Shown here: piece after piece, positions 1,061-59,222 of the stretch
Position numbering within the stretch: position 1 is the stretch's first letter
Layout: every line of letters begins with the position of its first letter
Assembly: GCA_035708725.1 (NCBI GenBank)
Contig: DASTFH010000151.1
Coordinates: forward strand, 3,783-67,782
Length of the DNA stretch: 64,000 bases
Source of the DNA: Gemmatimonadales bacterium
GTDB lineage: Bacteria; Gemmatimonadota; Gemmatimonadetes; Gemmatimonadales; GWC2-71-9
Direction: 5' to 3'
Made by a program: the position numbers and the translations under genes
Notes under the pieces: model-generated
Databases searched by the model: none
What the model was told of the DNA's origin: nothing
The model's input: the letters and a program-made list of their open reading frames with translations, nothing else

Positions 1061-1214
1061 AAGCTGTGAGCTGTGAGCTGTGAGCTGTTGTCACTCTGAG
1101 GCCGCGGAGCGGCCGAAGAGGCGGAGCCGTAGCCTGCGTGCCTTCGCTTCGCTCAGGGTGACAAGCTCACTCACCCCTCACCCCTCACCGCTCGCAGCTC
1201 ATAGCTCATAGCTC
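1041..1214. repeat. Composite hairpin element, type A core (1090-1162) flanked by heptamer arrays
   Basis: Left arm (AGCTGAA)3(AGCTGTG)3AGCTGTT at 1041-1089. Core GTCACTCTGAGG...CTCAGGGTGAC at 1090-1162. Right arm AAGCTCAC(TCACCCC)2..(TCATAGC)2 at 1163-1214, an approximate reverse complement of the left arm. Confidence 0.85.
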
Positions 1215-1216
1215 CA

Positions 1217-2224
1217 ATGACCAACTTCCTCGAACAGCAAGCCGCCAACCGCCGCCGGTCGCAGTGGCTGGTGGCGGGGTTCATTCTGTTCTTTGCCTGG
1301 GTCGGCTTTGGCGGCGACCTTGCCTTCGGCCTGCTCACGGCCGACAGCCCGCCCACGGCGTATCATCACGTCGTCCCCTTCATCGGCATCATCACATCCC
1401 TGCTGGCGATCGGCATTTGCTGGCATGCACAGCACAAGGGCGCCGAGCGGGTGCTCTGGGCCACCGGCGCATGGGAAATCATCGACCCGGCGACGCCGGA
1501 GCAGACCCAGTATGTGAACGTGGTGGAAGAGATGGCGATTGCCGCGGGCATCCCGCGGCCGCGCATCTGGATCGTGCCGGAGGAGGATCCCAACGCCTTC
1601 GCGACCGGCACGGACCCGGCCCATGCCAATATCGCGGCGACCGATGGCCTGCTGGCACTGCTCTCGCGCGACGAACTGCAGGGAGTGGTGGCGCATGAGA
1701 TGGCGCACATTCAGAACGAAGACACCCGGCTCATGACCCTGCTGGCCGGGATGATCGGCGCCATCCTGCTGGTGTCGGACGGAAGCCGGCGGTTTCTCGG
1801 CGGCTCGAATCGCAGCCTTGGCGGTCGCAAGGGGGGAGGAGGGAAGGGTGCGGCCGGCATGGTGGTGCTGGTGGTCTGGCTCATCAGCCTCATCATTGCG
1901 CCGCTGATCGCCCGCGTGCTGGCGATGTCGGTGAGCCGGAAACGCGAATATCTCGCTGATGCCACGGCGGCGCAGTTCACCCGGAATCCGCTGGCGCTGG
2001 CCTCGGCGCTGGAGAAGCTGGACTCGGCCACCCCGGCGACGCGCAGCATCGGCCGGGGCGCGGCGCACCTCTGCATCGTGGATCCGGGAGAGCGATCGAT
2101 CAGCGACGTTGACGGGCTGGTGGGCGATGTCTTCTCGTCGCACCCGCCCATCCGCCAGCGGATCATTCGATTGAAGGGGATGGGGTTTGCGTTTGCGAAG
2201 GCGGCGGTGGGACAGACGGCGTAG
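1217..2224 (+). CDS. M48 family (HtpX-like) zinc metalloprotease
   Basis: HEMAHIQNED (HExxH) between TM segments, plus a downstream EYLADATAAQFT glutamate motif. Lies immediately downstream of lemA. Confidence 0.85.
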   Translation: MTNFLEQQAANRRRSQWLVAGFILFFAWVGFGGDLAFGLLTADSPPTAYHHVVPFIGIITSLLAIGICWHAQHKGAERVLWATGAWEIIDPATPEQTQYVNVVEEMAIAAGIPRPRIWIVPEEDPNAFATGTDPAHANIAATDGLLALLSRDELQGVVAHEMAHIQNEDTRLMTLLAGMIGAILLVSDGSRRFLGGSNRSLGGRKGGGGKGAAGMVVLVVWLISLIIAPLIARVLAMSVSRKREYLADATAAQFTRNPLALASALEKLDSATPATRSIGRGAAHLCIVDPGERSISDVDGLVGDVFSSHPPIRQRIIRLKGMGFAFAKAAVGQTA

Positions 2225-2229
2225 GGCCC

Positions 2230-3258
2230 CTACATCTCCTCCAACTCCCGCCCCAGCACCGCCGGGTCGAACGGTACCGGCACCACCAGGTCAGCTCCGG
2301 TCGCGACCCCGGATACTCCGTCACCCGTCAGCGCCACGACACGATAGCTGCGCTCGTTCGCCGGAGGGAGACCGCCGTCGGGCACGTCGAGCGTCGACGC
2401 AAAGATGACGAGCGCGTTATCGCCGGTGGAGGCCATCCCGGACAGTTCTGACGCCGCATGACAGCGCCGCACACTCCATCCAGCTTGGCGCAAGAGCAGT
2501 GAGACGATCCGCGCCAGCGCTTCATCCGGCAGATAAAGCAGCGCGGCGCCCCGGGCGACGGCGGGCACCGCTGGCGGCCGCACGGCACCGTCGCTCAGGT
2601 CGATCATGCGCGTTGTGCCAACGTAGGTGGCGCTGCGCGCATCGCTCAGCGAGCCGATTTGCCGGACGATGTCGCGGATCCGTCCCAGTGCCACGCGCAC
2701 CTCGGTGAGCCCTTCACGCTGCGCCGGTGACAGCGCTTCGGGTGCCGCGAGCAGGAGGTCCACCTCGGCCGAGGCCGCCATGAGCGGATTGTTGATCTCG
2801 TGGTGGAGCGTGACCGTCATCTCACCCATCGCCGCTCGCCGCTCCGCCTGCACCAGCTCGGCCTCCGCCACTTCGAGCGCCCGCTTGAGCGCACGCTCCC
2901 GCCGCACCCGCTCCAGCACCTTGGGCAGCAGGTTGGGCAGGGTGCCGTCCTTCACCAGGTAATCGTCGGCCCCCCGCCGCAGCGATTCGGCCGCGAGCGC
3001 TTCATTGCCATGCGCCGTGATCATCACCACGCTGGGCGGCTCGCGCCGGTCGCGCAGGGAGCGGAGCAGGTCGACGCCCTCGTGATCCGGCAGCTGATGG
3101 TCGAGCAGCACCACGTCCGCCGCCTCGGCCTGCGCCAGGGCTCGCTCGGCGCTGGTCACATGGGCGACGCTGGAGACGCCGGCATTCTGCAGGACGGCAT
3201 CGAGCAGCCGGATGATGGCGGGGTCGTCGTCCACGATCAGCACGCGAAGCTCATCCAT
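2230..3258 (-). CDS. Receiver - HisKA - degenerate receiver protein with no ATPase domain (phosphotransfer-type)
   Basis: MDELRVLIVDDDP receiver, H-box LHHEINNPL, and no N/G1/G2 ATP-binding boxes afterwards. The C-terminal ~130 aa look like a degenerate receiver fold (LLYLPDE...VIFAS...VVALTGD). I chose the ATG at 3258, which leaves 2 nt after the GT2 stop; the ORF track starts at 3288. Confidence 0.7.
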   Translation of the reverse strand: MDELRVLIVDDDPAIIRLLDAVLQNAGVSSVAHVTSAERALAQAEAADVVLLDHQLPDHEGVDLLRSLRDRREPPSVVMITAHGNEALAAESLRRGADDYLVKDGTLPNLLPKVLERVRRERALKRALEVAEAELVQAERRAAMGEMTVTLHHEINNPLMAASAEVDLLLAAPEALSPAQREGLTEVRVALGRIRDIVRQIGSLSDARSATYVGTTRMIDLSDGAVRPPAVPAVARGAALLYLPDEALARIVSLLLRQAGWSVRRCHAASELSGMASTGDNALVIFASTLDVPDGGLPPANERSYRVVALTGDGVSGVATGADLVVPVPFDPAVLGRELEEM

Positions 3259-8651: not shown

Positions 8652-8688
8652 GACCGGGCCTTTGGCCTACGCCCCGGGGGAGTGGCGG

Positions 8689-9828: not shown

Positions 9829-10665
9829 TCACCCGACGAAATCCACCTGTACTCGTTCCGGAATGAGTCCTGCCTCGAACGCGCGGTCCAGCAGCAGGCG
9901 CACCGCCTCACGACCCCGCTCCCCGTAGTCCACGGTCCAGTCGTTCACGTACATGCCCACAAAGGTGTCGGTGCGCTCATCCCCGATACCCCGGTTGAAC
10001 TGCATGGCGTGGCTCAGGGCAGGGGCGCGGTGGGCCAGGCCGTACTCGATGCTGGCGCGGAGGTCACGGGCAATCTGCTGCATGACCGCCTCGCCCAGGT
10101 CGCGACGGACCACGTTGCCGCCCAGCGGCAGCGGCAGGCCGGTCTCCCGCATCCACCAGGCGCCCAGGTCCTCCCAGAGGTGGAGGCCGTCATCGGCAAA
10201 GGTGAGCTGTCCCTCATGGATCAGGAGGCCCACCTCCACGTCGCCGCGGTGAACCGCATCCTCGATCTGGTCGAATGGGACCACGACGTACTCCACGTCC
10301 GGCTGGTAGAGCTGGAGCGCGAGGAATGCCGTGGTCAGCGTGCCCGGCACGGCCACTCTCCTGCCCTTGAGCGCGGTGCGCGGGTCGGCAGGCGCGGGAC
10401 TCGTGGACACGAGACGCGGGCCATAGCCGTCGCCCATGGAGGAACCCGACGCCAGCAAGGCGTAGGTGCGCCAGAGATGGGCATAGGCGTGAATCGACAC
10501 CGCTGACACCTCGAGCTCACCCTTCAGGGCGCGCCGGTTCAGTGACTCGATGTCCGACAGCTCGTGGACATACTGGATGTCGCCGGTGTCGAGTTTCCCT
10601 TCGGCGAGCGCGTAGAACATGAACGCGTCGTCGGAATCGGGGCTGTGGGCTACGTGGATGAGCAT
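9829..10665 (-). CDS. MqnA/MqnD/SBP-family protein (futalosine-pathway-like)
   Basis: The N-terminus HSPDSDDAFMFYALAEGKLD resembles the SPCPNDTFxFYAL signature of the MqnD family. The subfamily cannot be resolved by eye. Confidence 0.55.
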   Translation of the reverse strand: MLIHVAHSPDSDDAFMFYALAEGKLDTGDIQYVHELSDIESLNRRALKGELEVSAVSIHAYAHLWRTYALLASGSSMGDGYGPRLVSTSPAPADPRTALKGRRVAVPGTLTTAFLALQLYQPDVEYVVVPFDQIEDAVHRGDVEVGLLIHEGQLTFADDGLHLWEDLGAWWMRETGLPLPLGGNVVRRDLGEAVMQQIARDLRASIEYGLAHRAPALSHAMQFNRGIGDERTDTFVGMYVNDWTVDYGERGREAVRLLLDRAFEAGLIPERVQVDFVG

Positions 10666-10666
10666 T

Positions 10667-10761
10667 GAGTTGAGAGTTAAGAGTTGAGATTTGAGGGAGA
10701 AGAGCGGGCCAGCCGAGAGTCGATCGCTCGACTCTCAACTCTTAACTCTTAACTCCCTCCC
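10667..10761. repeat. Hairpin array with inner palindrome
   Basis: Left arm GAGTTGA GAGTTAA GAGTTGA GATTTGA at 10667-10694. Inner palindrome GAGAGTCGA-tcgc-TCGACTCTC at 10715-10736. Right arm (AACTCTT)2AACTCCC. The stop codon of the zinc-ribbon gene (10749-10751) lies inside the right arm. Confidence 0.8.
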
Positions 10762-11570
10762 GCTCGACGTCTGAAATCATCTATCACATTCCTGTGATCC
10801 ACATACTCCTCCCGCCGCGCGGCGCTCTCGGCGGGCCAGGCCTTGAGGAAATCGGCGTAGGCCCGGCGCAGGGCGGTACTGTCGGCCTGGAACTGGGCGA
10901 TGTCGCCGCGGACGGCGTAGGCCAGGAGATAGCCCGGCGTCACGCGGAGCATCGTGTCGGTGAGCGCCAGCGCCTCGGTGAGCCGCCCGACCTGCGCGTT
11001 GAGGATGGCGGCGTGGTAGCGATCGTCCTGCGTCACCGTGTCGAGCTGGGCATAGGCGCCAAGCGCCATCGGCGTGAAGTTGATCACCGTGCTGCTGTCG
11101 CCCTGGGCGGCCGCCTGCATGACCCGGTTGTTGAGCCGGAGGAAGCGCTCCGATGGCGAGAGCTGGCTGATGTCGGGAGCCTGTCCCGTGGGCAGCCCGC
11201 CACCCGGATCCTGGGTGACCTGCGCGCTGTTGGCGTTGCCGGCGTTGGCCATGTCCGGCGTCCGGGCCCCGGTGGTCCCTGTCAGCATCTTCCAGACAAT
11301 GATCGCGAGGAGCGCAACGACCACGGCGCCTGCCACCATCCAGGCGGCGCGCTCCGAGCGGCTCGCCGCGGGCGTAGGCGCCAGCATCCGGGTGCCGGCA
11401 ACGGGGGCACCGCAACGATGGCAGAAGCGGGCCTGCGCCGAGACTTCGGCGCCACACGCCGCACAGGTCCGCGGGCCCTGCGCCGCGCCGCACGAACTGC
11501 AGAATTTCCCGTCCGCTGGCCGGCCGCAAGCAGGGCAGGTCGGGAAGGTCGCTGGTGTCTGGTCTGGCAT
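10749..11570 (-). CDS. Double zinc-ribbon membrane protein with helical-repeat C-terminal domain
   Basis: CPACG..FCSSCG and CAACG..FCHRCG motifs, then one TM helix and a periplasmic helical domain. Confidence 0.55.
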   Translation of the reverse strand: MPDQTPATFPTCPACGRPADGKFCSSCGAAQGPRTCAACGAEVSAQARFCHRCGAPVAGTRMLAPTPAASRSERAAWMVAGAVVVALLAIIVWKMLTGTTGARTPDMANAGNANSAQVTQDPGGGLPTGQAPDISQLSPSERFLRLNNRVMQAAAQGDSSTVINFTPMALGAYAQLDTVTQDDRYHAAILNAQVGRLTEALALTDTMLRVTPGYLLAYAVRGDIAQFQADSTALRRAYADFLKAWPAESAARREEYVDHRNVIDDFRRRAGGS

Positions 11571-11586: not shown

Positions 11587-11789
11587 GGGCGTGGGGCATG
11601 GGGCGTGGGGGTCGCGGGTTGCGCTCGCCGAAGCCAGCACTCTGGTCATCCTGAGCGCAGCGAAGGATCTACTGGCCCGATTCCGGATCGGGGTAAATGG
11701 ATCCTTCGGTCGCTGCGCGACCTCTGGATGACACGACCCATGACTTAAGCCCCACGCCCCACGCCCCAAGCCCAGGCCCGCGCCCCATG
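11587..11789. repeat. Composite hairpin element, type B core (11645-11732)
   Basis: Left arm GGGCGTG GGGCATG GGGCGTG. Core GTCATCCTGAGCGCAGCGAAGGATC...GATCCTTCGGTCGCTGCGCGACCTCTGGATGAC. Right arm is a C-rich complement (CCCACGCCCCACGCCCC...). Confidence 0.8.
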
Positions 11790-11848: not shown

Positions 11849-13225
11849 ATGACCGATCTTCGTCCCACCCTCAGCGATTTCCCTGCCGACCTCGCCGGCG
11901 CCACCAAGGCCGACGTGCTGGACCTGATTACCCGGTTCCAGGTGGATTTTCTCCGGCTCCAGTTCACCGACATCCTCGGCATCAACAAGAATGTGGAAGT
12001 GCCGAGGAGCCGATTCGAGAAGGCGCTGGACGGGGAGATCATGTTCGACGGGTCCTCGATCGAGGGTTTCGTCCGGATCGAGGAGAGCGACATGCTCCTC
12101 AAGCCGGACCTGCCGACACTGCGGATCCTGCCCTATGAAGACGAGGGCGGCCGCATCGCCCGGCTGCTCTGCGACGTCTACCTGCCGGACAACTCGCCCT
12201 TCAGCGGCTGCCCGCGCCTGGTGCTCAAGCGCCAGCTCGCGCGGGCCGAGAAGCTCGGCTTCACCATGATGGCGGGGTGCGAGGCGGAGTTCTTCCTTTT
12301 CGAAGGATCAGCCGATGGCTCCGTCACCACGGTCACCCATGATGACGGGAGCTACTTCGATCTCGGTCCCAAGGACCGTGGCGAAGAGATCCGGCGCGTG
12401 ATGGTGGACCAGCTGGTGAGCATGGGGATCGAAGTGGAGGCGGCGCACCATGAAGTGTCGCGCGGCCAGCATGAGATTGACCTCCGCTATGCCGATGCGC
12501 TGGTGACCGCCGACAACTTCGCGACGTTCAAGTATGTGGTCCGGAACGTGGCGTCGCGTTTCGGCTACGTGGCGTCATTCATGCCCAAGCCGATCGAGGG
12601 AATCAACGGCAGCGGCATGCACATGCACCAGTCGCTCTTCCGCGGGGAAGGGAAGAACGCCTTTCACGATCCGAAAGCCGACAACGGGCTGAGTGCGCTC
12701 GCGCTGAGTTATATCGAGGGACTGCTGCAGCATGCGCGCGGCTTCTGCGCCATCACCAATCCGCTGGTGAATTCCTACAAGCGGCTGGTGCCGGGCTTCG
12801 AGGCGCCGGTGAACGTCGCGTGGTCCATGCGGAACCGGTCGCCGCTGGTGCGGATTCCCGACCGGCGCGGCACCGGCACGCGCTGCGAGCTCCGGACGCC
12901 GGACCCGAGCTGCAATCCGTACCTGGCGCTCACCGTGCAGCTGGCAGCGGGGCTCGACGGTGTCGAGCGGAAGCTCAAGGCCCGCCCGCCCGTCAACCGC
13001 AACATCTTCACCATGAGCTACCGCGACCGGCGCAAGTTCCGGATCGATGATCTCCCGCGTGACCTCCACGAGGCACTGGACGAGATGAAGAAGGACAAGG
13101 TGATCACCACGGCGCTGGGCGACCACCTCACCGAACGCTTCCTCGAGGCCAAGCGGAAGGAAGTGGAGGAGTACCAGCGGCACGTGAGCGCGTGGGAGGT
13201 GGAGCGGTATCTGGGACGGTACTAG
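11849..13225 (+). CDS. glnA: Type I glutamine synthetase
   Basis: Conserved GS blocks FDGSSIEGF, NGSGMHMHQSLF and NSYKRLVPGFEAP, plus the arginine-rich SMRNRSPLVRIP loop. Confidence 0.9.
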   Translation: MTDLRPTLSDFPADLAGATKADVLDLITRFQVDFLRLQFTDILGINKNVEVPRSRFEKALDGEIMFDGSSIEGFVRIEESDMLLKPDLPTLRILPYEDEGGRIARLLCDVYLPDNSPFSGCPRLVLKRQLARAEKLGFTMMAGCEAEFFLFEGSADGSVTTVTHDDGSYFDLGPKDRGEEIRRVMVDQLVSMGIEVEAAHHEVSRGQHEIDLRYADALVTADNFATFKYVVRNVASRFGYVASFMPKPIEGINGSGMHMHQSLFRGEGKNAFHDPKADNGLSALALSYIEGLLQHARGFCAITNPLVNSYKRLVPGFEAPVNVAWSMRNRSPLVRIPDRRGTGTRCELRTPDPSCNPYLALTVQLAAGLDGVERKLKARPPVNRNIFTMSYRDRRKFRIDDLPRDLHEALDEMKKDKVITTALGDHLTERFLEAKRKEVEEYQRHVSAWEVERYLGRY

Positions 13226-13447
13226 ATGGGCGGGACGGGCAGGATGGGCGGGACCTGAGTCGAGCGTCATTGCGAGGAGGCGAAGCCGACGAAGCAATCG
13301 GGTGGCCTGCGAATTGATGCTTAAGCGACCCGATTGCTTCGCACCCTTCGGGTGCTCGCAATGACGCGCGTGGCGAGCTTCGGCCTGCCCATCCTGCCCA
13401 TCCTGCCCATCCTGCCCATCCTGCCCATCTAGCCCGTCCTGCCATCC
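13225..13447. repeat. Composite hairpin element, type C core (13266-13365)
   Basis: Left arm GATGGGCGG GACGGGCAG GATGGGCGG GAC. Core GTCATTGCGAGG...CTCGCAATGAC. Right arm (CTGCCCATC)5 TAGCCCGTC CTGCCATCC. Sits between the convergent glnA and DUF3108 stop codons. Confidence 0.85.
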
Positions 13448-20755: not shown

Positions 20756-20759
20756 AGGG

Positions 20760-20910
20760 GGTCGTCGGTCGTCGGTCATCAACTGCACTGTCACTCTGAG
20801 GCTGCGAAGCAGCCGAAGAGGCCGGAGCTTGGTTGAGCTTCGGTCCCTTCGCTTTGCTCAGGGTGACAGACGCAAACCTCCGACGACCGATGACTGACGA
20901 CCGATGACCG
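20760..20910. repeat. Composite hairpin element, type A core (20790-20867), between imuB and dnaE2
   Basis: Left arm (GGTCGTC)2GGTCATC. Core GTCACTCTGAGGCTGCGAAGCAGCCGAAGAGGC...CTCAGGGTGAC. Right arm CCGACGA CCGATGA CTGACGA CCGATGA, an exact-type reverse complement of the left arm that contains the dnaE2 ATG (20904). Confidence 0.9.
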
Positions 20911-23900
20911 CGTACACAGAACTCCACACCCACTCCTGCTTCTCGCTCCTCGACGGTGCGTCCACGCCCGAACGGCTGGTGGAGAGCGCCAGCGCACTGG
21001 GCTACCGCGCGCTCGCGCTCACCGACCACAACGAGATGGGCGGGGCGGTGCAGTTCGCCGAAACGGCGCGCGAGAATGGACTCGCGGCCATTCTTGGCAC
21101 CGAGCTCACGGTGCTGTGGGATGATGAACTCACCCATCTCACCCTGCTGGCCGAGTCGCGCGAGGGGTACGGCAACCTCTGCCAATTGATCACGCAGAGC
21201 CGCATGGAGATGCCGCGCGGTGAGCCGGCGGTGCCGCTGGCGCTACTCGCGCAGCATGCGGCGGGAATCTTTGCGCTCACCGGCTGCCTCCGGGGTCGGG
21301 TGCCGGTGCTGGTGGCACGCGGCGATGAAGCGGCTGCCCGAGCGGCTGCCGCACAGCTGCATGACATGCTCGACGGCCGGCTCGCCATCGAGTGCTGGGA
21401 TCACAGCCTGGAGGAGGAACGCGTCGTCGTCCCGGCACTCCAACGCATCGCGCACTTCCTCGGCGTGCCGTGGGTGGTGACCAACGACGTGCACTACGCC
21501 CATCCCGACGAGTGGCGCACGCATGATGTGCTCACCGCGCTGCGTCACCGGCGGACGCTGGAGGAAATGGGGAGCCGGCTCCGCCCCAGCGGCGAGTGGT
21601 ACCTCAAGCATCCGGCCCAGCATGCCCGGCGCTGGCAGCATGCGCCCGAGGGATTGCTCGCGAGCGTCGAGATCGGCGAACGCTGTGTCTTTCGCCTCGA
21701 GCATCTCAAGCCGGCCATGCCGGATTTTCCCCTGCCGCCCGGCGTCACCGCCGACGAATATCTCGCGCGCCTCGTGGCGCAGGGGGCGCGCGAACGCTGG
21801 GGCCGGGACATCACCCTTGCCCAGCGCCGCCAGCTCATGCATGAGCTGGACCTGATCAGGCGGCTCGACTTTGCCGGCTATTTCCTGATTGTCTGGGACA
21901 TCGTGCGCTTTGCCCGTCGCGAGGGGATCCTCTGCCAGGGCCGGGGCTCCGCCGCCAATTCCGCCGTCTGCTACTGCCTCGGCATCACCGCCATCGATCC
22001 CGTCGCCATGGAGCTCCTGTTCGAGCGCTTCCTGAGTGAGGACCGGCGTGAGGCCCCCGACATCGACCTCGACTTCGCGCACCAGGAACGCGAGCGCGTC
22101 ATCCAGTATGTCTACCAGCGCTACGGCCGCGCGCACGCGGCGATGGTGTGCGAGCAGATCACCTGGCGCGAGCGCAGCGCCATCCGTGACGCGGCGCGGG
22201 TGCTCGGGTACTCGGCGGAGGAGGGGGACGTACTTGCAGAGATGGCGGAGCAGGGAGGAAGGGTCAACGGTCAACAGTCAACGGTCGACCGTCGACCGTC
22301 GACCGTCGACCGCGTAGCCGCCTCCCTCCACGGCCTCCCCCGTCATCGCTCCATCCACGTGGGCGGGTTTGTGCTGACGCGCGAGCCGCTGGCGACGGTT
22401 GTCCCGATCGAGCCCGCATCCATGCCGGACCGCACCGTGATCCAGTGGGAGAAGGACGACCTCGATCCGGTCGGTCTGGTAAAGATCGACCTGCTGGGCC
22501 TCGGCATGCTCACCGCGCTGCAGGAGTGCCTGCACACCATCCGTCGCACCCGGGGCGTGTCGCTCGACCTCGCCACCATCCCGCACGGCGACATGGCGGT
22601 GTACGACGACCTGTGCCGAGCCGATACCGTGGGCGTCTTCCAGGTGGAGAGTCGGGCGCAGATGAACACGCTGCCCAGGCTCAAGCCGCGCTGCTTCTAC
22701 GATCTCGTGGTAGAGGTGGCGCTGATCCGTCCCGGCCCCATCCAGGGCGACATGGTGCATCCCTACCTGCGGCGGCGGGCGGGCACCGAGGCGGTGACCT
22801 ATCCGCATCCCGCGCTCGAGCCGATCCTCAAGCGCACGCTCGGTGTGCCGCTCTTCCAGGAGCAGGGAATGCAGGTGGCCATCACGGCGGCCGGCTTCAC
22901 CCCCGGCGAGGCCGACACGCTGCGGCGCGCCATGGGGCACAAGCGCTCGCGCGAGCGGATGGCGGCGATCTGCGCCAAGCTGATTGCGGGGATGCGGCAG
23001 AACGGGATTCCGGAGGAGACGGCGCAGAAGATCTTCAACCAGATCAACGCCTTTGCGGATTACGGCTTTCCCGAGAGTCACGCCGCCAGCTTTGCGATCC
23101 TGGTCTATGCCTCGGCCTATCTCCGCCACTACTACGCGCCAGAATATCTCGCGGCGATGCTCAACGCCCAGCCGATGGGGTTCTACTCGACGGGCACGCT
23201 GGTGGAAGATGCCAGGCGGCATGGCGTGGAGGTGCGCGGCGTGGACCTCACACGGTCGTCGTGGGATTGCACCATGGAAGCAGGCCGCAATGGACCGGTG
23301 GTGCGGCTGGGACTCCGTACCGTGCGCGGGCTGGGTGCGCGAGCGCGGGAGATTCTCGGAGCCGGGGCGGCCACCCGCGCCTACCGGAGCGTGAGTGATG
23401 TCGTCCATGCGGGACTCGACCGCCGCACGTTGCGCGCGCTGGCGGAAGCGGGTGCGTTCGACGGCATGTTTCCCGATGCGCCGGCCAGGAGGCGGAGGCG
23501 CACCGCGCTCTGGGCCGTGCTCGCCGCCGAGCGGGGCGATGCGGGCCCGCTGGCGCCGCCGGTGGCGCTGGTCGAGCCACCGGCATTGCCGGCGATGACG
23601 CCGGTGGAGCTCACGGAAGCCGATTACCGGATGACCGGGCTTTCGCTCGCCGGGCACCCCATGAGCCACCTGCGCGAGTGGCTCAGGCGGAATGGGGTGC
23701 CGACGGCGGCGGAAGTGCTGGAAGATGCGACCTGCGACCTGCGACCTGTGACTTGCGACCTGCGACCCGCGACCCGCGACCTGCGACCTGTGACCGTCGT
23801 AGTCGCCGGCCTGGTCATCTGCCGCCAGCGGCCGCACACGGCCCATGGGTTCGTGTTCGTCACGCTGGAGGACGAAACCGGGATGCTCAATGTGGTGATC

Positions 23901-24068
23901 CCGCCCACGGTCTTCGAGAAGCAGCGGTTGTTGATTGCCAGGACGCCGTTGCTGCTGGTGCGGGGGGAGCTGCAGGTGGAGGGGCTGGTGGTCAATATCA
24001 AGGCGGCGGAATGCGAGGCGATTCATGCTGCCGTGGGCAGGCATGCGAGGAGCCATGATTTCCATTGA
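20904..24068 (+). CDS. dnaE2: Error-prone DNA polymerase III alpha-like subunit DnaE2
   Basis: The PHP N-terminus YTELHTHSCFSLLDGAS, pol III alpha core blocks (GRGSAANSAVCYCLGIT, DIDLDF, FQVESRAQM) and the OB fold region VAGLVICRQRPHTAHGFVFVTLEDETG are all present. Synteny with imuA and imuB supports the call. Confidence 0.9.
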   Translation: MTAYTELHTHSCFSLLDGASTPERLVESASALGYRALALTDHNEMGGAVQFAETARENGLAAILGTELTVLWDDELTHLTLLAESREGYGNLCQLITQSRMEMPRGEPAVPLALLAQHAAGIFALTGCLRGRVPVLVARGDEAAARAAAAQLHDMLDGRLAIECWDHSLEEERVVVPALQRIAHFLGVPWVVTNDVHYAHPDEWRTHDVLTALRHRRTLEEMGSRLRPSGEWYLKHPAQHARRWQHAPEGLLASVEIGERCVFRLEHLKPAMPDFPLPPGVTADEYLARLVAQGARERWGRDITLAQRRQLMHELDLIRRLDFAGYFLIVWDIVRFARREGILCQGRGSAANSAVCYCLGITAIDPVAMELLFERFLSEDRREAPDIDLDFAHQERERVIQYVYQRYGRAHAAMVCEQITWRERSAIRDAARVLGYSAEEGDVLAEMAEQGGRVNGQQSTVDRRPSTVDRVAASLHGLPRHRSIHVGGFVLTREPLATVVPIEPASMPDRTVIQWEKDDLDPVGLVKIDLLGLGMLTALQECLHTIRRTRGVSLDLATIPHGDMAVYDDLCRADTVGVFQVESRAQMNTLPRLKPRCFYDLVVEVALIRPGPIQGDMVHPYLRRRAGTEAVTYPHPALEPILKRTLGVPLFQEQGMQVAITAAGFTPGEADTLRRAMGHKRSRERMAAICAKLIAGMRQNGIPEETAQKIFNQINAFADYGFPESHAASFAILVYASAYLRHYYAPEYLAAMLNAQPMGFYSTGTLVEDARRHGVEVRGVDLTRSSWDCTMEAGRNGPVVRLGLRTVRGLGARAREILGAGAATRAYRSVSDVVHAGLDRRTLRALAEAGAFDGMFPDAPARRRRRTALWAVLAAERGDAGPLAPPVALVEPPALPAMTPVELTEADYRMTGLSLAGHPMSHLREWLRRNGVPTAAEVLEDATCDLRPVTCDLRPATRDLRPVTVVVAGLVICRQRPHTAHGFVFVTLEDETGMLNVVIPPTVFEKQRLLIARTPLLLVRGELQVEGLVVNIKAAECEAIHAAVGRHARSHDFH
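22262..22310 (+). repeat. Heptamer array inside the dnaE2 CDS
   Basis: (GGTCAAC)2 AGTCAAC GGTCGAC (CGTCGAC)3, translated as VNGQQSTVDRRPSTVDR in a linker before LHGLPRH. Confidence 0.85.
23727..23796 (+). repeat. Heptamer array inside the dnaE2 CDS
   Basis: Ten units of GCGACCT/GTGACTT/GCGACCC, translated as CDLRPVT CDLRPAT RDLRPVT directly before the OB-fold segment VVVAGLV. Confidence 0.85.
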
Positions 24069-24072: not shown

Positions 24073-24135
24073 GTCGGGCGTCGGGCGTCGAGCGTCGAGC
24101 GTCAAGCGCTCGACGCCAGACGCTTGACGCGCGAC
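24073..24135. repeat. Coreless hairpin array
   Basis: (GTCGGGC)2(GTCGAGC)2GTCAAGC | GCTCGAC GCCAGAC GCTTGAC GCGCGAC. It starts 5 nt after the dnaE2 stop and ends 2 nt before the DUF72 ATG. Confidence 0.85.
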
Positions 24136-24137
24136 GC

Positions 24138-25124
24138 ATGACCCACGACCCCGGCATCGACGCCGCCACGCGCCGCGCCGACGCGCTGGCCGACGTGGAC
24201 GCGGTGCCCATCATGGTGGGCAAGGCCGAGGTGCGGATCGGGACGGCGGGGTGGACCGACCCCACGCTTACGAAGCGCGGCGTGTTCTATCCTGCCGGTG
24301 CGGACAGCGCGGAGGACCGGCTCCGCTACTACGCCAGCCGCTTCTCGATGGTGGAGGTGGATTCCACCTATTACGCGCTGCCGGTGTCGCAGATGGCCGA
24401 GCGCTGGGTGGAGCGCACGCCGGAGGGCTTTGTCTTTGACGTGAAGGCGCATGCCCTGATGACGGGGCATCCCACCGATCCGCATCGCCTCCCTCCTGCG
24501 TTAAGAGAAGAGCTGGGCGGCAGTGCCGATGCGCATCGCGTGTATCCCAGGGACATGTCGGATGCGCTGCTGGATCATGTCTGGGAATTTTTTCGCGACG
24601 CGCTCCGGCCGTTGTACGACGCGGGGAAGATGGGCTCGGTGCTCATGCAGTATCCGCCCTGGTTCATGCCGTCCAAGGGCAACGTGGCCAGGATTCTCGA
24701 AGCTCGGCAGCGCCTGGCGCCGCTGGAGATCGCGGTGGAGCTGCGTAACGCGCGCTGGTTCAGCGAGAAGGTCGGCCCGCGCACCGTCGACTGGTGCACC
24801 GAGCATGCAGTGCCGCTCGTCATGGTAGACGAGCCGCAGGGGACGCCGCACAGCGTGCCGAGGCTGGTCACGGTCACGTCCCCTTCGCTGGCGATCCTCC
24901 GCCTGCATGGCCGGAAGGCGGCGACCTGGGCGCGGCGCGGCGCGAGCGTGGGCGAGAAGTACCGCTATCTGTACGACCGGGAGGAGCTGCAGTCGCTGGT
25001 GCCGGACGTCGAGGACGCCGGCCGCGAGGCTCGGCGCATGCACATCATCTTCAATAATTGCTATGGGAACTACGGGACGACGAATGCGCTGGAGATGTGG
25101 GAGGAGCTAAGCGCTCAGCGCTGA
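24138..25124 (+). CDS. DUF72 family protein
   Basis: IGTAGWTDP, FYP..., RLRYYASRFSMVEVDSTYYALP and the IFNNCYGNY C-terminal block. Confidence 0.8.
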   Translation: MTHDPGIDAATRRADALADVDAVPIMVGKAEVRIGTAGWTDPTLTKRGVFYPAGADSAEDRLRYYASRFSMVEVDSTYYALPVSQMAERWVERTPEGFVFDVKAHALMTGHPTDPHRLPPALREELGGSADAHRVYPRDMSDALLDHVWEFFRDALRPLYDAGKMGSVLMQYPPWFMPSKGNVARILEARQRLAPLEIAVELRNARWFSEKVGPRTVDWCTEHAVPLVMVDEPQGTPHSVPRLVTVTSPSLAILRLHGRKAATWARRGASVGEKYRYLYDREELQSLVPDVEDAGREARRMHIIFNNCYGNYGTTNALEMWEELSAQR

Positions 25125-28646: not shown

Positions 28647-28716
28647 GAGCTGTGAACTGCGAGCTGTGAGCTGTGAGCTGCGAGCTGTGAGCTGTGAGCT
28701 GAAGACCGAAAGCTAA
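28647..28716. repeat. Heptamer array (GAGCTGT family)
   Basis: GAGCTGT GAACTGC (GAGCTGT)2 GAGCTGC (GAGCTGT)2 GAGCTGA AGACCGA AAGCTAA. Its reverse complement ACAGCTC is 6/7 identical to the ACAGCGC register of the 28026 array. Confidence 0.85.
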
Positions 28717-28789: not shown

Positions 28790-28821
28790 GGTTGCTTCGC
28801 GCCTTCGGCGCTCGCAATGAC
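28790..28821 (+). repeat. Right half of a type C core
   Basis: GGTTGCTTCGCGCCTTCGGCGCTCGCAATGAC aligns with 13334-13365 and 59144-59180. No left half (GTCATTGCGAG) is present. Confidence 0.7.
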
Positions 28822-28840
28822 AGCTTGGAGCTAGCTTCGC

Positions 28841-28920
28841 CTAACCGCCTAACCGCCTAACCGCCTAACCGCCTAACCGCCTAACCGCCTAACCGCCTAA
28901 CCGCCTAACCGCCTAACCGC
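28841..28920. repeat. Perfect octamer array (CTAACCGC)10
   Basis: Ten identical units counted; it ends 20 nt before the ClC start codon. Confidence 0.95.
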
Positions 28921-28940
28921 CCAGCCGACTATCTTCCCCC

Positions 28941-30734: not shown

Positions 30735-31010
30735 CAGGGCGAGCAGGGCGAGCAGGGCGAGTCGGTTGGTTGTACGCCGCACGTCGTACGTCGTCATGTC
30801 ACTCTGAGGTCGCGAAGCGACCGAAGAGGCCGAAGCTCAACTGACGCTCCGGCCCCTTCGCTCCGCTCAGGGTGACAACTTCGCTCACAGCTCACAGCGC
30901 ACAGCGCACAGCGCACAGCACACAGCGCACAGCACACAGCACACAGCGCACAGCACACAGCGCACAGCTCACAGCTCACTGTCCATCGGTCCAACTGTCC
31001 ATCTGTCCAC
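30735..31010. repeat. Composite element, type A core (30798-30876), with non-complementary arms
   Basis: Left arm (CAGGGCGAG)3 plus GTACGTCGT-type units. Core GTCACTCTGAGGTCGCGAAGCGACCGAAGAGGC...CTCAGGGTGAC. Right arm has 13 CACAGCN heptamers (30886-30976), then CTGTCCAT-type octamers (30979-31010). Confidence 0.9.
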
Positions 31011-37704: not shown

Positions 37705-37815
37705 GGTCGAGGAGTCGAGGGGTCGAGCAGTCAAGGAACCTACCTCGACCTCTCGACTCCTCGACCTCTCGACGGCTCAACCTCTCGACCCCTCGACGTC
37801 TCGACCTCTCGACCG
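37705..37815. repeat. Hairpin array of GTCGAGG-type octamers
   Basis: Left arm GGTCGAGG AGTCGAGG GGTCGAGC AGTCAAGG. Right arm has nine CTCGACNN units ending at the DUF1634 stop codon. Confidence 0.85.
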
Positions 37816-43259: not shown

Positions 43260-44078
43260 ATGATCATGATACCGGTTGATGCCCGGTTTGGCTCGCCGTG
43301 CGAGATTCGCCGCCCTTCACTTTCTTCCGAGGCCGGCTTGTCTCGTCGATTCGAGCCTCTGGCAGATGACCGACAGTCCATCCGGCTCGATGGATATGAC
43401 TACGCGCGGGACGGCGCGTATTTCATCACGATGTGTGTCGCCGGGCGCAGGCGCATCCTTGGCCAGATTCGCAACGGGGTCGTGGTGCTGAGCGAAGCGG
43501 GGCGCATCGTGCGGGACGCGTGGGAACAGTTGCCTGCCCATTATCCCCATGTGCGGCTGGATGAATTCGTGATCATGCCCAACCACGTGCACGGCATCAT
43601 CATGTTAACGGGCGACGGCCAGGACGTGGGAACGGGTCCGGACGTGGGAATGGATCGGAACGTGGGAATGGATCGGGACGTGGGAACGGACCGGGACGTG
43701 GGAACGGATTGGGACGTGGGAATGGATCGGGAGGTGGGAACGGATCGGGAGGTGGGAACGGATCGGGACGTGGGAACGGATCGGGACGTGGGAAAGGTAG
43801 GGGCGGGTCTAAGACCCGCCCCTACGGCCGCCCGGGGTACCATCCCAACGTCACGCGGCGTCCCGATCTCGACCCGCGTCCACGCATTACCGGAAATCGT
43901 CCGCGCGTTCAAATCCTTCTCCGCGCGCGCCATAAACATTCACCGCGGTACACCGGGCGCCCGTGTCTGGCAACGGAACTACTACGAACGGATTATCCGT
44001 AACCAGCACCATCTTGAGCAGACCCGCCGCTACATTCGGGAGAACCCGACCAAATGGGGTGACGACCGGTTCCACTAG
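43260..44078 (+). CDS. HUH-Y1 transposase homologue (IS200/IS605 TnpA / REP-associated tyrosine transposase-like)
   Basis: The family N-terminal block SIRLDGYDYARDGAYFITMCV, the HUH motif MPNHVHGII and the catalytic Tyr helix HHLEQTRRYIRENP are all present. The start is uncertain (an in-frame TTG at 43338 is possible). The linker carries an expanded repeat. Confidence 0.75.
   Translation: MIMIPVDARFGSPCEIRRPSLSSEAGLSRRFEPLADDRQSIRLDGYDYARDGAYFITMCVAGRRRILGQIRNGVVVLSEAGRIVRDAWEQLPAHYPHVRLDEFVIMPNHVHGIIMLTGDGQDVGTGPDVGMDRNVGMDRDVGTDRDVGTDWDVGMDREVGTDREVGTDRDVGTDRDVGKVGAGLRPAPTAARGTIPTSRGVPISTRVHALPEIVRAFKSFSARAINIHRGTPGARVWQRNYYERIIRNQHHLEQTRRYIRENPTKWGDDRFH
43623..43802 (+). repeat. Ten tandem 18-nt units inside the transposase CDS
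   Basis: GACGTGGGAACGGATCGG-type units, translated as (DVGTDR)n, between the HUH and Tyr motifs. Confidence 0.9.
43799..43823. repeat. Perfect 12-bp palindrome inside the transposase CDS
   Basis: AGGGGCGGGTCT-a-AGACCCGCCCCT, translated as GAGLRPAP. Confidence 0.9.
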
Positions 44079-45834: not shown

Positions 45835-45836
45835 CT

Positions 45837-47036: not shown

Positions 47037-47117
47037 CAGGGCGAGCAGGGCGAGCAAGACGAGCAGGAGGTCTACTTGCTCGCCTTGCTCGCCCTGTCGT
47101 CCTGTCCGTCCTGTCGC
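47037..47117. repeat. Hairpin array of 9-mers
   Basis: (CAGGGCGAG)2 CAAGACGAG CAGGAGG, loop, (CTTGCTCGC)2 CCTGTCGTC CTGTCCGTC CTGTCGC. The stop at 47072 sits at the loop. Confidence 0.85.
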
Positions 47118-50010: not shown

Positions 50011-50019
50011 GAGCGCGGG

Positions 50020-53281: not shown

Positions 53282-53305
53282 CGCTGGGCGCTGTGCGCCC
53301 AGCGC
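53281..53305. terminator. Perfect 11-bp hairpin between convergent genes
   Basis: GCGCTGGGCGC-tgt-GCGCCCAGCGC starts at the last base of the SCO stop codon. There is no U tract. Confidence 0.45.
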
Positions 53306-53347
53306 TCAGCCTTTCGCCTTCAGCCTTCCGCCCCCAGCCCCTCAGCC
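53305..53347. repeat. Degenerate heptamer array
   Basis: CTCAGCC TTTCGCC TTCAGCC TTCCGCC CCCAGCC CCTCAGCC. It contains the RND stop (53320) and encodes its tail AEGLGAEG. Confidence 0.7.
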
Positions 53348-56427: not shown

Positions 56428-57536
56428 TCGTCCTCCTGTGCCACCGCGGCGGCAGGCTTCCGGATCTGGACCTTGGCCCCGTCCCGAAGCAGGATCTGGC
56501 CGTCCGTGACCACCTGGCTGCCGGGCTGCAGTTCCGCCGTGACAACGGCAAGGCTGTCATTGGTCCGCTGCACCTTGACCGGCACCATGGCCGCCGTGCT
56601 GTCCGGCTTGATCGCAAAGACGAACGTGCCCGATTGTCCCGACACAACCGCGGCCGACGGCACCGTGAGCGCGCTGTCCTGCACATAGAGCCGGATCCGC
56701 ACGTTCACGAATTCACCAGGCCACAGCAGGCCATCCTCATTGGGAAAGCGGGCCTTGAGCAGGATGGTCCCGGTGGTGGTGTCCACGGCATTGTTGATGA
56801 AATCGAGCGTGCCGATGCTGGCGTCCCCGCCGGCCGTCGGCTCCACCCGCACGGGCAGCGAATCATCGCGCCGCCGCTGGAGCTCCGCGAGATTGCCGGC
56901 CGGCACCGAGAAACGCGCAAGGATGGGCCGGATCTGGTTGATGGTCACCAGCGGGGAAGGATCCGAGGCGCGCACCAGGTTGCCTTCACGCACCAGCAGG
57001 CTTCCGGTTCGGCCGCTGATCGGCGCGCGAATGGTGGCGTACTGGAGATTGAGCTGGGCCTCATCCACGGCTGCCTGGCTCGCGGCCAGTGTCGCACTGG
57101 CGGAGAGCGCGTCAGCCCGCGCCTGGTCGCTCTGCTGCGTGGTCACGAACTCCTTCTCCGCCAGCGTGGCATACCGCTTCGCCTGCTGCTCGGTCTGCTC
57201 CGCTCGTGCCCTGGCGCCCGCGAGGTTGGCCTGCGCCTGCTGCAGCGCCGCGCGGAAGGGACGCGGATCGATCTCGAAGAGGATCTGGCCCTTCTTGACG
57301 TTGTCGCCCTCGTGGAAGGCCACATTCACGATCTGCCCGCTCACCTGCGGTGCCACCGCGACCGTCTGCACCGGCTCGATCGTACCGGTCGCAGAAAGCT
57401 CATAGGGAACTGGCCCCTGCTTCACCAGGCCGACCGTGACTGGCGTCGCCGCGGGCGCAGGCGCCTTGCCGTCACCGCAGGCGGCGAGCAGGAGGAGGCA
57501 GCTGAGAAGCGACAGTCGCGAGGAAAAATCAGTCAT
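56424..57536 (-). CDS. RND periplasmic adaptor (membrane fusion protein)
   Basis: ATG at 57536 gives the lipobox LLAACG. Also a coiled-coil hairpin plus the lipoyl/beta-barrel motifs GQILFEID and APISGRTG. Confidence 0.85.
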   Translation of the reverse strand: MTDFSSRLSLLSCLLLLAACGDGKAPAPAATPVTVGLVKQGPVPYELSATGTIEPVQTVAVAPQVSGQIVNVAFHEGDNVKKGQILFEIDPRPFRAALQQAQANLAGARARAEQTEQQAKRYATLAEKEFVTTQQSDQARADALSASATLAASQAAVDEAQLNLQYATIRAPISGRTGSLLVREGNLVRASDPSPLVTINQIRPILARFSVPAGNLAELQRRRDDSLPVRVEPTAGGDASIGTLDFINNAVDTTTGTILLKARFPNEDGLLWPGEFVNVRIRLYVQDSALTVPSAAVVSGQSGTFVFAIKPDSTAAMVPVKVQRTNDSLAVVTAELQPGSQVVTDGQILLRDGAKVQIRKPAAAVAQEDE

Positions 57537-58998
57537 TGCCTGGAGCCGAAGGTGTCGAGTCTTGAATGAGCCTGAGCGAGCTGCCGCCCTGCGTATCGAG
57601 CACGCCGGCATCGTGCGCCAGCTGCGCCAGCGAGACGTTCCATTCCAGGCGAGCCTGGATACGCTGGGCCCGCGCGTCGGCGAGCGCGCTCTGCGCCGCG
57701 AGGAGATCGAGCACGGTGCCGACGCCCTCCTTGTAGCGTGCCAATGCTACCTGGGTCGACTGCTCTGCACTCGCCAGCAGGTCTTCCGCCGTATGCACTC
57801 GGCGGGTCGCCGTCTGCAGCGTGTAGTAGGAACTGAAGACCTCGAAAATGACCTGCTGGCGGAGGCTTGCCGTTTGGGCCCGCGCCGCCTCAGCGGAATA
57901 TTGTGCACTCTTGAGGTCGTAGCGTCGGGAGAAGCCGCTGAAAATCGGGACGCTGAGGCCGAGTGAGACGGTGTAGTTGTCGGAGCCGTTCGGAATGCTC
58001 GTGGCGTACGTCCGGCCGGCGTTGGCGCTGAAGCGAAGCTCGGGCAGCAGCGCCGAGCGTGCGTCGCCGACCCGCGCGGCGGCGGCTTCGGCGTCAGCGC
58101 GAGCCGCAGCGAGGTCGGGACGGCCGGCCACGGCTGCATTGATGAGCTGCTGCACGCTGTCAGCGAGCACCGCCACCGGCACATCGGCCGCAGTGGTGTC
58201 AACATCATATGGCACGTTGGCTGGAAGCCCGAGCGCGAGCGCCAGCGCGCCTCGCGTCGTCGCGAGCGATCCCTCAGTGCTCTGCATGGTGAGCTGCACC
58301 TGGCTCAGCGCGGTCTTTGCCTGCAGGACATCGGCAATGGTGGCGAGCCCCACGCGGCGCCGCTCCTCCGCGGCCGACAGGTTGGCCTGGGCTTCCTTGA
58401 GTGTTGTCGCCTGTGCCTCCAGTAGCGCCCGCGTCGCCACGTACTGGAAGTAGCTCACCTCGATCTGCAATACTGCGGACTGAAGCACTGCGTTATGGGT
58501 AAAGTCGGCGGCGACCAGTTGCTCCCGTGCCGACCCCACGCGTCCGTTGCGCCCGCCGAAATCCAGCAGCAGCCAGGAGAGCGAGAGACTGGGCGCAAAG
58601 ACCGACTGCCTGACCGCGCTCCGGCCCTGGCTCGCCGTGGTCTTGAGGCGGGTGGCGTTGACGTCGGCGTCCAGTGTTGGTAGCCACTCACCCCGTGCCG
58701 ATCCATAACTGGCGGCGGCGGCCCGAGCCTGTGCCCATGACTGGCGGGTGGCGGTGTTGTTCCGGAGCCCGATATCGATCAGCTCACCCAGAGTCAGGTG
58801 GCTGGCTCGCTCCGCGATATCCGGTGGCAGCGCGATGTCCGGGGTGGCCGTGTCGGCGGAATTCCGTTCCGTCACCGACAGCGGCGGAATCCACGGCTCG
58901 GCAGGGCCGGGCGCGGTCCCGGCCACTCCTTGCACGGACGGAGTGCCAACGCACGCTACTATAAGGAAAGGGACGGCGCAGAAAAGGAGAGATTTCAT
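57529..58998 (-). CDS. Outer-membrane efflux factor (TolC family) lipoprotein
   Basis: ATG at 58998 (in frame), lipobox IVAC, two tandem TolC-type helical repeats. The ORF-track extension to 59427 translates a repeat element. Confidence 0.8.
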   Translation of the reverse strand: MKSLLFCAVPFLIVACVGTPSVQGVAGTAPGPAEPWIPPLSVTERNSADTATPDIALPPDIAERASHLTLGELIDIGLRNNTATRQSWAQARAAAASYGSARGEWLPTLDADVNATRLKTTASQGRSAVRQSVFAPSLSLSWLLLDFGGRNGRVGSAREQLVAADFTHNAVLQSAVLQIEVSYFQYVATRALLEAQATTLKEAQANLSAAEERRRVGLATIADVLQAKTALSQVQLTMQSTEGSLATTRGALALALGLPANVPYDVDTTAADVPVAVLADSVQQLINAAVAGRPDLAAARADAEAAAARVGDARSALLPELRFSANAGRTYATSIPNGSDNYTVSLGLSVPIFSGFSRRYDLKSAQYSAEAARAQTASLRQQVIFEVFSSYYTLQTATRRVHTAEDLLASAEQSTQVALARYKEGVGTVLDLLAAQSALADARAQRIQARLEWNVSLAQLAHDAGVLDTQGGSSLRLIQDSTPSAPGND

Positions 58999-59037
58999 CC
59001 TGATCAATACGGTGAATGGGGGGGATTTGTTGACCAA

Positions 59038-59222
59038 GATGGGCAGGATGGGCGAGATGGGCAGGACTTTGATTGAGCGTCCTTGCGAGCCGCGAAGCGG
59101 CGAAGCAACCGGGTAGCCGAAATCGAGATGCTGGCGACCCGATTGCTTCGTCGAGCCCTCCGGGTTCTCCTCGCAATGACGCGTCAGGGTTAGCTTCATC
59201 CCGCCCATCCCGCCCACGGTCC
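59038..59222. repeat. Composite hairpin element, type C core (59079-59180)
   Basis: Left arm GATGGGCAG GATGGGCGA GATGGGCAG GAC. Core GTCCTTGCGAG...CTCGCAATGAC. Right arm (CATCCCGCC)2 CACGGTCC, ending at the DUF2207 stop. Confidence 0.85.

Follow-up and report, generated by a model that had tools for sequence, protein, structure and literature searches.

Palindromic intergenic cores of a Gemmatimonadales bacterium as probable REP-type hairpin dimers related to the CGTC/TGTC-tagged superfamily

Introduction

Are the palindromic cores that lie between the genes of a Gemmatimonadales bacterium structured RNAs serving the genes beside them, or are they DNA hairpins that move? The question is raised by a 64,000-nucleotide (nt) stretch of contig DASTFH010000151.1 (assembly GCA_035708725.1), hereafter called the window, which has a GC content of 67% and in which a sequence-only reading had described palindromic cores of three types (A, B and C) at seven sites. 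That reading held that the side hairpins of the cores covary and are capped by stable GAA and UUCG-type loops, that the fold is under selection as RNA or single-stranded DNA (ssDNA), and that a decaying mobile palindrome would not leave such a pattern. We could confirm the coordinates and sequences of all seven sites, and found that each core consists of two inverted copies of one hairpin unit of 24-39 nt, arranged head-to-head. Considering the anatomy, the pairing and the distribution of these units, the cores look like dispersed, probably mobile DNA hairpins and not like gene-specific structured RNAs, with mobility suggested by the distribution of the copies. We read the cores as dispersed palindromic repeats of the repetitive extragenic palindrome (REP) type, namely REPIN-like dimers of a module that falls within the CGTC/TGTC-tagged REP superfamily or is a structural variant of it, and we put the probability of this reading at about 0.62.

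Results

Each core is a dimer of one bipartite hairpin unit

Every unit has the same layout: an unpaired (C/T)GTC tag is followed by a basal stem of 4-5 bp, a tandem G·A/A·G step, an apical stem-loop, a second tandem G·A step and the returning strand of the basal stem. The basal stems are ATCCT/AGGAT in type B, ATTGC/GCAAT in type C, and CTCT/AGAG and CCCT/AGGG in type A. Tag, basal stem and GA steps are conserved in the unit; at the apex only pairing is needed, with a stem of 2-8 bp and a short loop, mostly of 3 nt. What had been described as a "side hairpin" is this apical stem. The type A side stems (GCCGC/GCGGC, GCTGC/GCAGC and GTCGC/GCGAC) and the type C stems had been quoted correctly, except that the presumed UUCG-type loop in 'CACCC-ttcg-GGGTG' turned out to be a TTC triloop in GCACCC-TTC-GGGTGC. 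Because the right-hand unit is inverted, the TTC and TCC loops are simply the complements of GAA and GGA loops.

The terminal boxes are common to the three types, as had been noted, and the box GTCAYYSYGAG has 12 exact matches in the window against 1.01 expected (0 of 100 shuffles), 11 of them inside cores. Each full core contains a side hairpin, a central stem-loop and an outer stem, type C having a second side hairpin in addition. For each of the six full cores, at least one strand folds better than shuffled sequences, the RNA z-scores of the better strand lying between -3.4 and -9.0, and ssDNA folding of the two cores tested gave z = -4.3 and -7.1. When units were folded in isolation as ssDNA, the minimum free energy structure was exactly the first stem, a 2x2 GA loop, the second stem and a triloop. 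A simple unit finder recovered 10 of the 13 window units, compared with 1.4 matches in shuffles. The 13 unit ends read TGTC (eight), CGTC (four) and GGTC (one). Head-to-head dimers occupy six of the seven window sites, that is, all six full cores; their spacers measure about 17-33 bp and fold into hairpins. In type A the two units of the dimer differ, making it a heterodimer, and 24 of 31 type A left units have a right partner. The tails of the window copies vary, reading ATC-GGG, ATC-TAC and AGG-CGG, and a copy from Methylosinus ends in ...GCAATCCAG. REPs with a perfect stem and a CGTC tag did not occur above chance in the window.

The form d(GTCATCCTGAGCGAAGCGAAGGATC) of the unit may adopt a fold with sheared G·A pairs and a GNA triloop. 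The oligonucleotide d(GCGNAGC) is an extra-stable DNA mini-hairpin, and sheared tandem G·A pairs in DNA favour a 5'-YGAR-3' context; since both features fit the unit, we lean towards a fold of ssDNA.

Compensatory changes preserve the unit hairpin

A pairing test that avoids circularity was anchored solely on the apex GAGCGNAGCGA, of which the collected loci contain 154 sites. The sequences flanking this apex are complementary at positions 1-4 in 84-91% of the sites and at the fifth position in 72%, and the flank pairs differ widely (CCCT/AGGG, TTCT/AGAA, CCCC/GGGG, TGCT/AGCA, CGCT/AGCG, TCCT/AGGA and TCCC/GGGA). The preceding GTC is conserved yet unpaired, being complementary in only 9% of these anchored units.

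For type A, a scan of a genome collection supplied 28 further left units, and 24 complete copies were aligned to core A1. In the unit-level structure 98.7% of the cells are paired. Double-sided changes involve five pairs and 15 cells, a figure reached by none of 500 shuffles, and pairing falls to 38-60% when the 3' partner is slid as a control. The four variable side-stem pairs show CG, UA and AU alternatives; U·G pairs and mismatches number two each. Several of the covarying cells fall in subfamilies, so that fewer events are independent, roughly five double changes versus four uncompensated ones. The loop is hypervariable, with 13 different triloops in 31 type A copies, which leaves no room for GAA or UUCG loops as a stable conserved motif.

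The type A alignment also discriminates between the two structures that a core could form. In the right unit, pair 62/74 is UA in 17 copies, CG in six and UG in one. Read in a cruciform, box-to-box model, these substitutions leave pair 29/62 broken in six copies, and pair 8/74 becomes U·G in seven. As 62/74 covaries while 29/62 breaks, it is the unit hairpin that is kept, and not the long box-to-box stem; compensation thus preserves the unit hairpin, sometimes at the cost of the box-to-box stem.

Type C units were collected by a metagenome scan, which returned at least 120 stretches on contigs with a GC content of 28-70%. Among the matches listed, 152 units carry 116 distinct apical inserts, whose stems differ yet stay paired. 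The majority class has the form GTCATTGCGAG-GA-(stem/loop)-GA-CGAAGCAATC with apical stems of 2-8 bp, nearly all of them different, and within this class 43 of the 64 distinct inserts among the matches listed are fully paired to a loop of at most 5 nt, versus 13% of shuffles. GAA is the commonest loop in the listed matches and many others are present. The covariation first seen in the window is therefore genuine in far larger copy sets, both in the 24 type A copies and in the type C inserts, from which we conclude that pairing is maintained and not simply decaying. To that extent the covariation claim of the sequence-only reading stands; its further step, that a mobile palindrome is thereby excluded, is contradicted by what is found at orthologous sites.

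Cores are gained, lost, replaced and inverted at orthologous sites

The glutamine synthetase (GS) protein encoded next to cores B and C1 has homologues of about 80% identity that are named Gemmatimonadales by NCBI, and we compared its locus with relatives in which the GS protein is 97%, 90% or 86% identical and synteny is conserved (loci are given as L plus number). The window carries core B upstream and core C downstream of GS. Of the two relatives at 97%, L099 has no core upstream and a core C with different apical stems and a different spacer downstream, and L100 has no core on either side, its downstream region measuring 67 nt; the flanking coding sequences of these two loci are almost identical, yet their cassettes are entirely different. 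At 90%, L096 and L097 share a different upstream core that starts with a CGTC-1-like unit, GTCATTCCCGCGAAAGCGGGAATCC; downstream, the L096 contig ends after 14 nt and L097 has a CGTC-1-like unit plus a B-like dimer. At 86%, L095 has arrays only upstream and a CGTC-1-like dimer downstream, and L098 has nothing upstream (92 nt) and half a type C core downstream. The two intergenic regions flanking GS hence behave as hypervariable cassettes.

A second locus provides an inversion. At the imuB-dnaE2 site of L095, the arrays, the linker (GTCGTCAACTGCACT), the left unit and the spacer are the same as in core A2 of the window, but the whole cassette (L095:15883-16030) is inverted relative to imuB/dnaE2 when compared with window positions 20756-20903, and the right unit has been lost. 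Recombination between the arms of the inverted arrays could have produced such an arrangement. Cores are thus absent, swapped or inverted at orthologous sites whose neighbouring genes are 86-97% identical, and the claim that a mobile palindrome had been ruled out fails. Nor do type A copies show a preferred orientation to the upstream gene, with 11 on the same strand and nine on the opposite strand by the calls of a crude home-made gene caller.

Other families of hairpin units were observed in the Gemmatimonadales relatives, at the GS locus (L095-L097) and in L075, L094 and L092. Among them are a canonical CGTC-1/dRS3-like unit, GTCATTCCCGCGAAAGCGGGAATCCA, and a unit of the form GTCACCCCGGCGAA(A/G)GCCGGGG(T/C)CCAGA. 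In L092 a hairpin CCCCCGC-GAAA-GCGGGGG is inserted within the right unit of a type A core.

These observations bear directly on whether the cores are host-functional structured RNAs, which might act as orientation-tolerant stabilisers of mRNA 3' ends, terminators or processing sites, and in which selection on the RNA fold would give covariation. Such a role would suit the strong folds on both strands and the position of many copies just downstream of stop codons (A1, A2, A3, C1 and copies on phage contigs). No canonical terminators or promoters were found around cores B and C1 in a 3.5-kb stretch, which has no U-tract intrinsic terminator, and the stems contain G·T pairs, which Di Nocera, De Gregorio and Rocco likewise read as a hint of transcription in their REPs (PMC3733652). 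However, core B sits in a divergent promoter region, the cores are missing or replaced at orthologous sites of close relatives with the flanking genes intact, a cassette is inverted between relatives, orientation is unbiased, and comparable intergenic positions are filled by array palindromes that have no core. A check against Rfam, which the sequence-only reading had suggested, found no family matching a core, whether the cut-off was the gathering threshold or E <= 10. Absence, replacement and inversion at orthologous sites, together with the lack of orientation bias, argue for REP-type dispersed DNA and against a conserved gene-specific RNA, and we consider the RNA explanation improbable, albeit the best placed of the alternatives. 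The motif CUGAG...CGAAG was also inspected as a possible hammerhead or K-turn and rejected, the hammerhead core CUGANGA...GAAA being incomplete and a 3-nt bulge being absent.

Near-identical units occur across phyla, with no transposase found beside the sampled copies

Beyond Gemmatimonadales, units are present in Cyanobacteria, Alpha- and Gammaproteobacteria and Chloroflexota, and also on phage-like contigs. The 24-nt type B unit GTCATCCTGAGCGNAGCGAAGGATC has exact matches in 64 IMG/VR stretches with a GC content of 43-70%, some of them solo and others paired as inverted dimers. The genome-collection scan located the type A left unit in 25 stretches from Gemmatimonadales metagenome-assembled genomes (MAGs) and in two stretches from Anaerolineae MAGs. 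A plasmid of Methylosinus trichosporium OB3b carries a type C unit with 100% identity over 32 nt; identity is 97% in Methylocystis and 86-91% in Halomonas, Calothrix, Novosphingobium, Trichormus and Tolypothrix, and full type C dimers lie in unannotated intergenic DNA of Aulosira and Methylosinus. B-like units are 92-93% identical in Planktothrix, Gloeothece and Phocaeicola plasmids, although with weak E-values. In other MAGs, unrelated genes enclose composites of arrays plus core with about 76% identity to A2. The head of a unit is in places repeated in tandem, and on one phage-like contig (L054) a unit inside an open reading frame (ORF) is read through in frame.

We found no recurrent neighbour gene family when 2,462 ORFs neighbouring the units in about 210 unit-bearing loci were clustered, and an HUH/Y1 (RAYT-like) motif had no match in 1.56 Mb of such loci. 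ORFs between neighbouring units are ordinary or phage genes. A literature search with the box strings and with typical spurious peptide strings returned only primers or nothing.

Two further arrangements were seen outside the window. Metagenome contig Ga0207055_1035 contains a 121-nt tandem repeat (L164:3908-4975; 8.8 copies, 97% matches), each repeat of which holds a tail-to-tail pair of type C units. On an Aulosira laxa plasmid, an intergenic region (L221:620-660) combines a type C dimer with GTCAACN heptamers (GACTGTCAACGGTCAACCGTCAACAG), and this heptamer is that of the Gemmatimonadales arrays at window positions 22262-22290.

A conserved unit with a free apex might also be a double-stranded or cruciform site for a host protein, such as a gyrase- or IHF-like nucleoid protein or a replication or repair factor of the kind proposed for E. 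coli REP/BIME, and be kept for chromosome organisation. The symmetric dimer, which would work in either orientation, and the conservation of tag and basal stem as the would-be contact region speak for this. The site-by-site presence or absence of the cores among close relatives and their uneven distribution oppose a general chromosomal role, an argument also made in PMC3733652, and no candidate protein is known; we consider this explanation unlikely. Least probable of all is that the cores are passive products of hairpin-prone DNA, in which extrusion of array hairpins, slippage and template switching create and "correct" palindromes with neither selection nor mobility: although array palindromes have cores at their centre, near-identical strains differ in array copy number and unit heads can be reiterated in tandem, conservation extends to the GA steps and to the GTC tag, which is not palindromic, and the same 24-32-nt unit recurs at 92-100% identity in unrelated phyla at 28-70% GC, a sequence that local mutational processes cannot reinvent.

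Sites and tandem arrays of the window

The positions of cores, units and flanking arrays are collected in Table 1.

Table 1. Cores, hairpin units and flanking tandem arrays in the window
Feature	Position	Strand	Description
Core A1	1090-1162		Type A; head-to-head heterodimer
A1 left unit	1090-1121	+	TGTC tag, CTCT/AGAG stem, tandem G·A, apical stem GGCCGC-GGA-GCGGCC
A1 right unit	1139-1162	-	GTCACCCTGAGCGAAGCGAAGG; spacer hairpin between both units
A1 left array	1040-1088		Tandem GAGCTGT/AAGCTGA heptamers abutting the core
A1 right flank	1163-1214		Partial complement of the left array
Core A2	20790-20867		Type A; between imuB-like and dnaE2-like genes
A2 left unit	20790-20821	+	
A2 right unit	20844-20867	-	
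A2 left flank	20760-20777		GGTCGTC arrays
A2 right flank	20880-20910		Complement of the GGTCGTC arrays
Core A3	30798-30876		Type A
A3 left unit	30798-30829	+	
A3 right unit	30853-30876	-	
A3 flanking arrays			Asymmetrical: left CAGGGCGAG and GTACGTC; right CACAGCG x13
Core B	11645-11732		Type B; divergent region upstream of the GS gene
B left unit	11645-11669		GTCATCCTGAGCGCAGCGAAGGATC
B spacer			Hairpin CCCGAT...ATCGGG
B right unit	11701-11732	-	
B left array	11587-11610		GGGCGTG
B right array	11749-11773		GCCCCAC
Core C1	13266-13365		Type C; between convergent GS and DUF3108 genes; CGTC tag at both ends
C1 left unit	13266-13299	+	
C1 right unit	13333-13365	-	
C1 left array	13225-13253		GATGGGCGG
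C1 right array	13384-13447		CCTGCCCAT
Core C2	59079-59180		Type C
C2 left unit	59079-59110	+	Box with one mismatch (GTCCTTGCGAG)
C2 right unit	59142-59180	-	
C2 flanking arrays	59038-59066 and 59197-59216		
Solo type C unit	28790-28821	-	GTCATTGCGAGCGCCGAAGGCGCGAAGCAAC
Solo unit, left array	28647-28701		GAGCTGT
Solo unit, right array	28838-28921		CGCCTAAC

Many intergenic regions throughout the window contain array palindromes without a core, consisting of a run of a 7-9-nt tandem repeat, a short arbitrary centre and a run of the complement (for example 10652-10770, 24073-24152, 37705-37806, 47037-47096 and 61603-61678), and about half of the symmetric arrays have a core at their apex. Arrays also enter coding sequence. 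The 3' end of a LemA-like ORF (476-1060) runs into the heptamer array left of A1 (1040-1060), so that its last residues, ELKAES, and its stop codon are array-encoded. The 1054-aa DnaE2-like ORF (20904-24068) contains heptamer arrays at 22262-22312 and 23726-23795, made of GGTCAAC/GTCGACC, itself palindromic, and of TGCGACC x10, and the reading frame passes through both without a break (RVNGQQSTVDRRPSTVDR; DATCDLRPVTCDLRPATRDLRPVT). Error-prone polymerase and repair genes are noted as frequent hosts of REPs (PMC3733652). The top-scoring tandem array of the window is an 18-nt repeat at 43622-43794, GGACGTGGGAACGGATCG, with 9.6 copies and 90% matches.

Discussion

Our data favour the view that the cores are REP-type dimers of the CGTC/TGTC-tagged kind, but several observations weigh against it. 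Among near-identical strains the cores are fixed and identical and the flanking arrays gain or lose single repeats, which would suit slow turnover or retention by the host: the A1 core is identical across nine strain contigs, no empty A1 site was found among near-identical strains, and in one strain contig (L231) the copy number of the A1 array differs by one heptamer. Solo units on some phage-like contigs are co-oriented with genes and placed just past stop codons, which a role as RNA would suit equally well. In 18 of the 24 type A copies the + strand folds better as RNA than the - strand, an advantage that we judge to be largely an inherited feature of the family and no independent evidence. 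We saw no transposition event, intermediate or enzyme. Finally, the window units depart from the families described for the CGTC superfamily, which have a continuous stem of 8-9 bp and a loop of 4-5 nt: in the window, one or two tandem G·A steps divide the stem into a basal part of 4-5 bp and an apical part of 2-8 bp, and the loops are mostly of 3 nt.

How such a module might spread can be outlined as follows. The module would act as a folded single strand, most likely as ssDNA exposed during replication or recombination and possibly as RNA when transcribed. It would be copied or exchanged among intergenic sites by a putative trans-acting, structure-specific activity; since most copies lie between inverted tandem arrays, recombination from one array to the other may be a further way of moving it. 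Copies with a disrupted hairpin would either not be propagated or be repaired by hairpin-templated repair, either of which would yield covariation with no need for an RNA function at the level of the host. Effects on neighbouring genes, if any, such as stabilisation of mRNA 3' ends or termination, would be by-products and would not depend on orientation. A bolder version, which we raise as speculation and do not expect to prove right, is that the module spreads across phyla without a dedicated transposase, the inverted arrays acting as portable homology or hairpin arms and the cores being inserted, swapped and flipped at the apex of the array palindromes. Host recombination, template switching at replication forks or a widely conserved structure-specific nuclease would then be the agents and, if true, this would explain how CGTC REPs move.

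In our reading, the cores are new, structurally variant families of the known CGTC/TGTC-tagged REP dimers in a new phylum. This assigns intergenic palindromes of an uncultured soil Gemmatimonadales bacterium to the world of REPs, and they should not be mistaken for riboswitch-like RNAs. To that world they add a structurally distinct CGTC/TGTC branch, with GA-stepped stems, an expandable apex and a near-identical unit in several phyla at 28-70% GC; clean natural examples of cassette replacement and of cassette inversion between inverted arrays; and direct evidence that what compensation maintains is the hairpin of the unit, as opposed to the long stem of the dimer. They thereby bear on the unsolved spread of REPs that lack a transposase. 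Units translated as spurious peptides or located inside real ORFs also matter for annotation.

Several known systems resemble the cores in part. Integron attC sites were considered and set aside, the boxes being GTCAYYS...SRRTGAC and not RYYYAAC...GTTRRRY, and the cores occurring singly between core genes (GS, LemA, imuB/dnaE2). The small dispersed repeats (SDR) of cyanobacteria are said, from work by Elhai and colleagues in 2008, to be nested in arrays of heptamer short tandemly repeated repetitive (STRR) sequences. SDR are described as tiny intergenic hairpin repeats with heptamer arrays that encode no protein and show presence/absence patterns suggestive of mobility, as the cores do here, and the joint occurrence of type C dimers and GTCAACN heptamers in Aulosira resembles the SDR/heptamer association. 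Unlike the hosts of cyanobacterial SDR, however, the window organism is a Gemmatimonadales bacterium with 67% GC.

REPINs consist of two inverted REP units and a spacer and are mobilised by RAYT (Bertels & Rainey 2011, PMC3116915). As in REPINs, two inverted units with a spacer form one long hairpin in the window cores, and the elements are extragenic, dispersed and present in high copy number, the dimer being the repeated unit and solo units looking like remnants. The tail-to-tail cluster on Ga0207055_1035 likewise resembles the higher-order clusters described for REPs and REPINs. In contrast to GTAG-tagged REPs, the window units carry (C/T)GTC-A/G and not the 5' GTAG that is cleaved by RAYT, and whereas REPIN sequences are lineage-specific, units of the window type are near-identical across phyla. 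A REP flanking a Nostoc RAYT, GTTGGGTT-GAGGAACGA-AACCCAAC (Bertels & Rainey), has the same GAG...CGA junction between stem and apex as the window units, which may be a faint hint of a common design. No link to RAYT emerged from the loci sampled. Where RAYT homologues were examined, on plasmids of Chloroflexota and cyanobacteria (L223-L225), the REPs beside them are of the GTAGG... kind and not these units.

The closest likeness is to the second of the two superfamilies, GTAG-tagged and CGTC-tagged, into which REPs have been divided (Di Nocera, De Gregorio & Rocco 2013, BMC Genomics 14:522; PMC3733652). CGTC REPs have an unpaired CGTC (or TGTC/CCTC) tag, an 8-9-bp stem that starts with A-T, a loop of 4-5 nt and, at the untagged end, a 3-nt unpaired tail with the consensus CCA. 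Most form head-to-head dimers, including heterodimers, with structured spacers of 20-100 bp, and some copies are intragenic; they occur in five phyla, have no associated transposase and include Neisseria dRS3 and Rickettsia RPE-4/RPE-6 (PMC3733652). The window units share the outer unpaired CGTC/TGTC tag, at 12 of 13 unit ends, and in types B and C the A-T start of the stem (ATCCT/AGGAT and ATTGC/GCAAT); type A differs in starting with A·G/C-G (AC.../...GG) instead of A-T/T-A. The cores are likewise head-to-head dimers with structured spacers, heterodimeric in type A, and their units occur in several phyla, in some cases inside genes, with no associated transposase in the loci sampled. Moreover, relatives of the window organism carry canonical CGTC-1-like units at the same intergenic sites. 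Nesting at the apex of tandem-repeat palindromes is seen in the window and is not described in PMC3733652, and the string 'Gemmatimon' has no match in the text of that paper, whose species lists sit in its figures. That survey states that 'unusual' bulged classes may have escaped its search, and how CGTC REPs move is an open question there. With their tags, their head-to-head arrangement and their stems interrupted by GA steps, the cores of the window would be structural variants within this superfamily.

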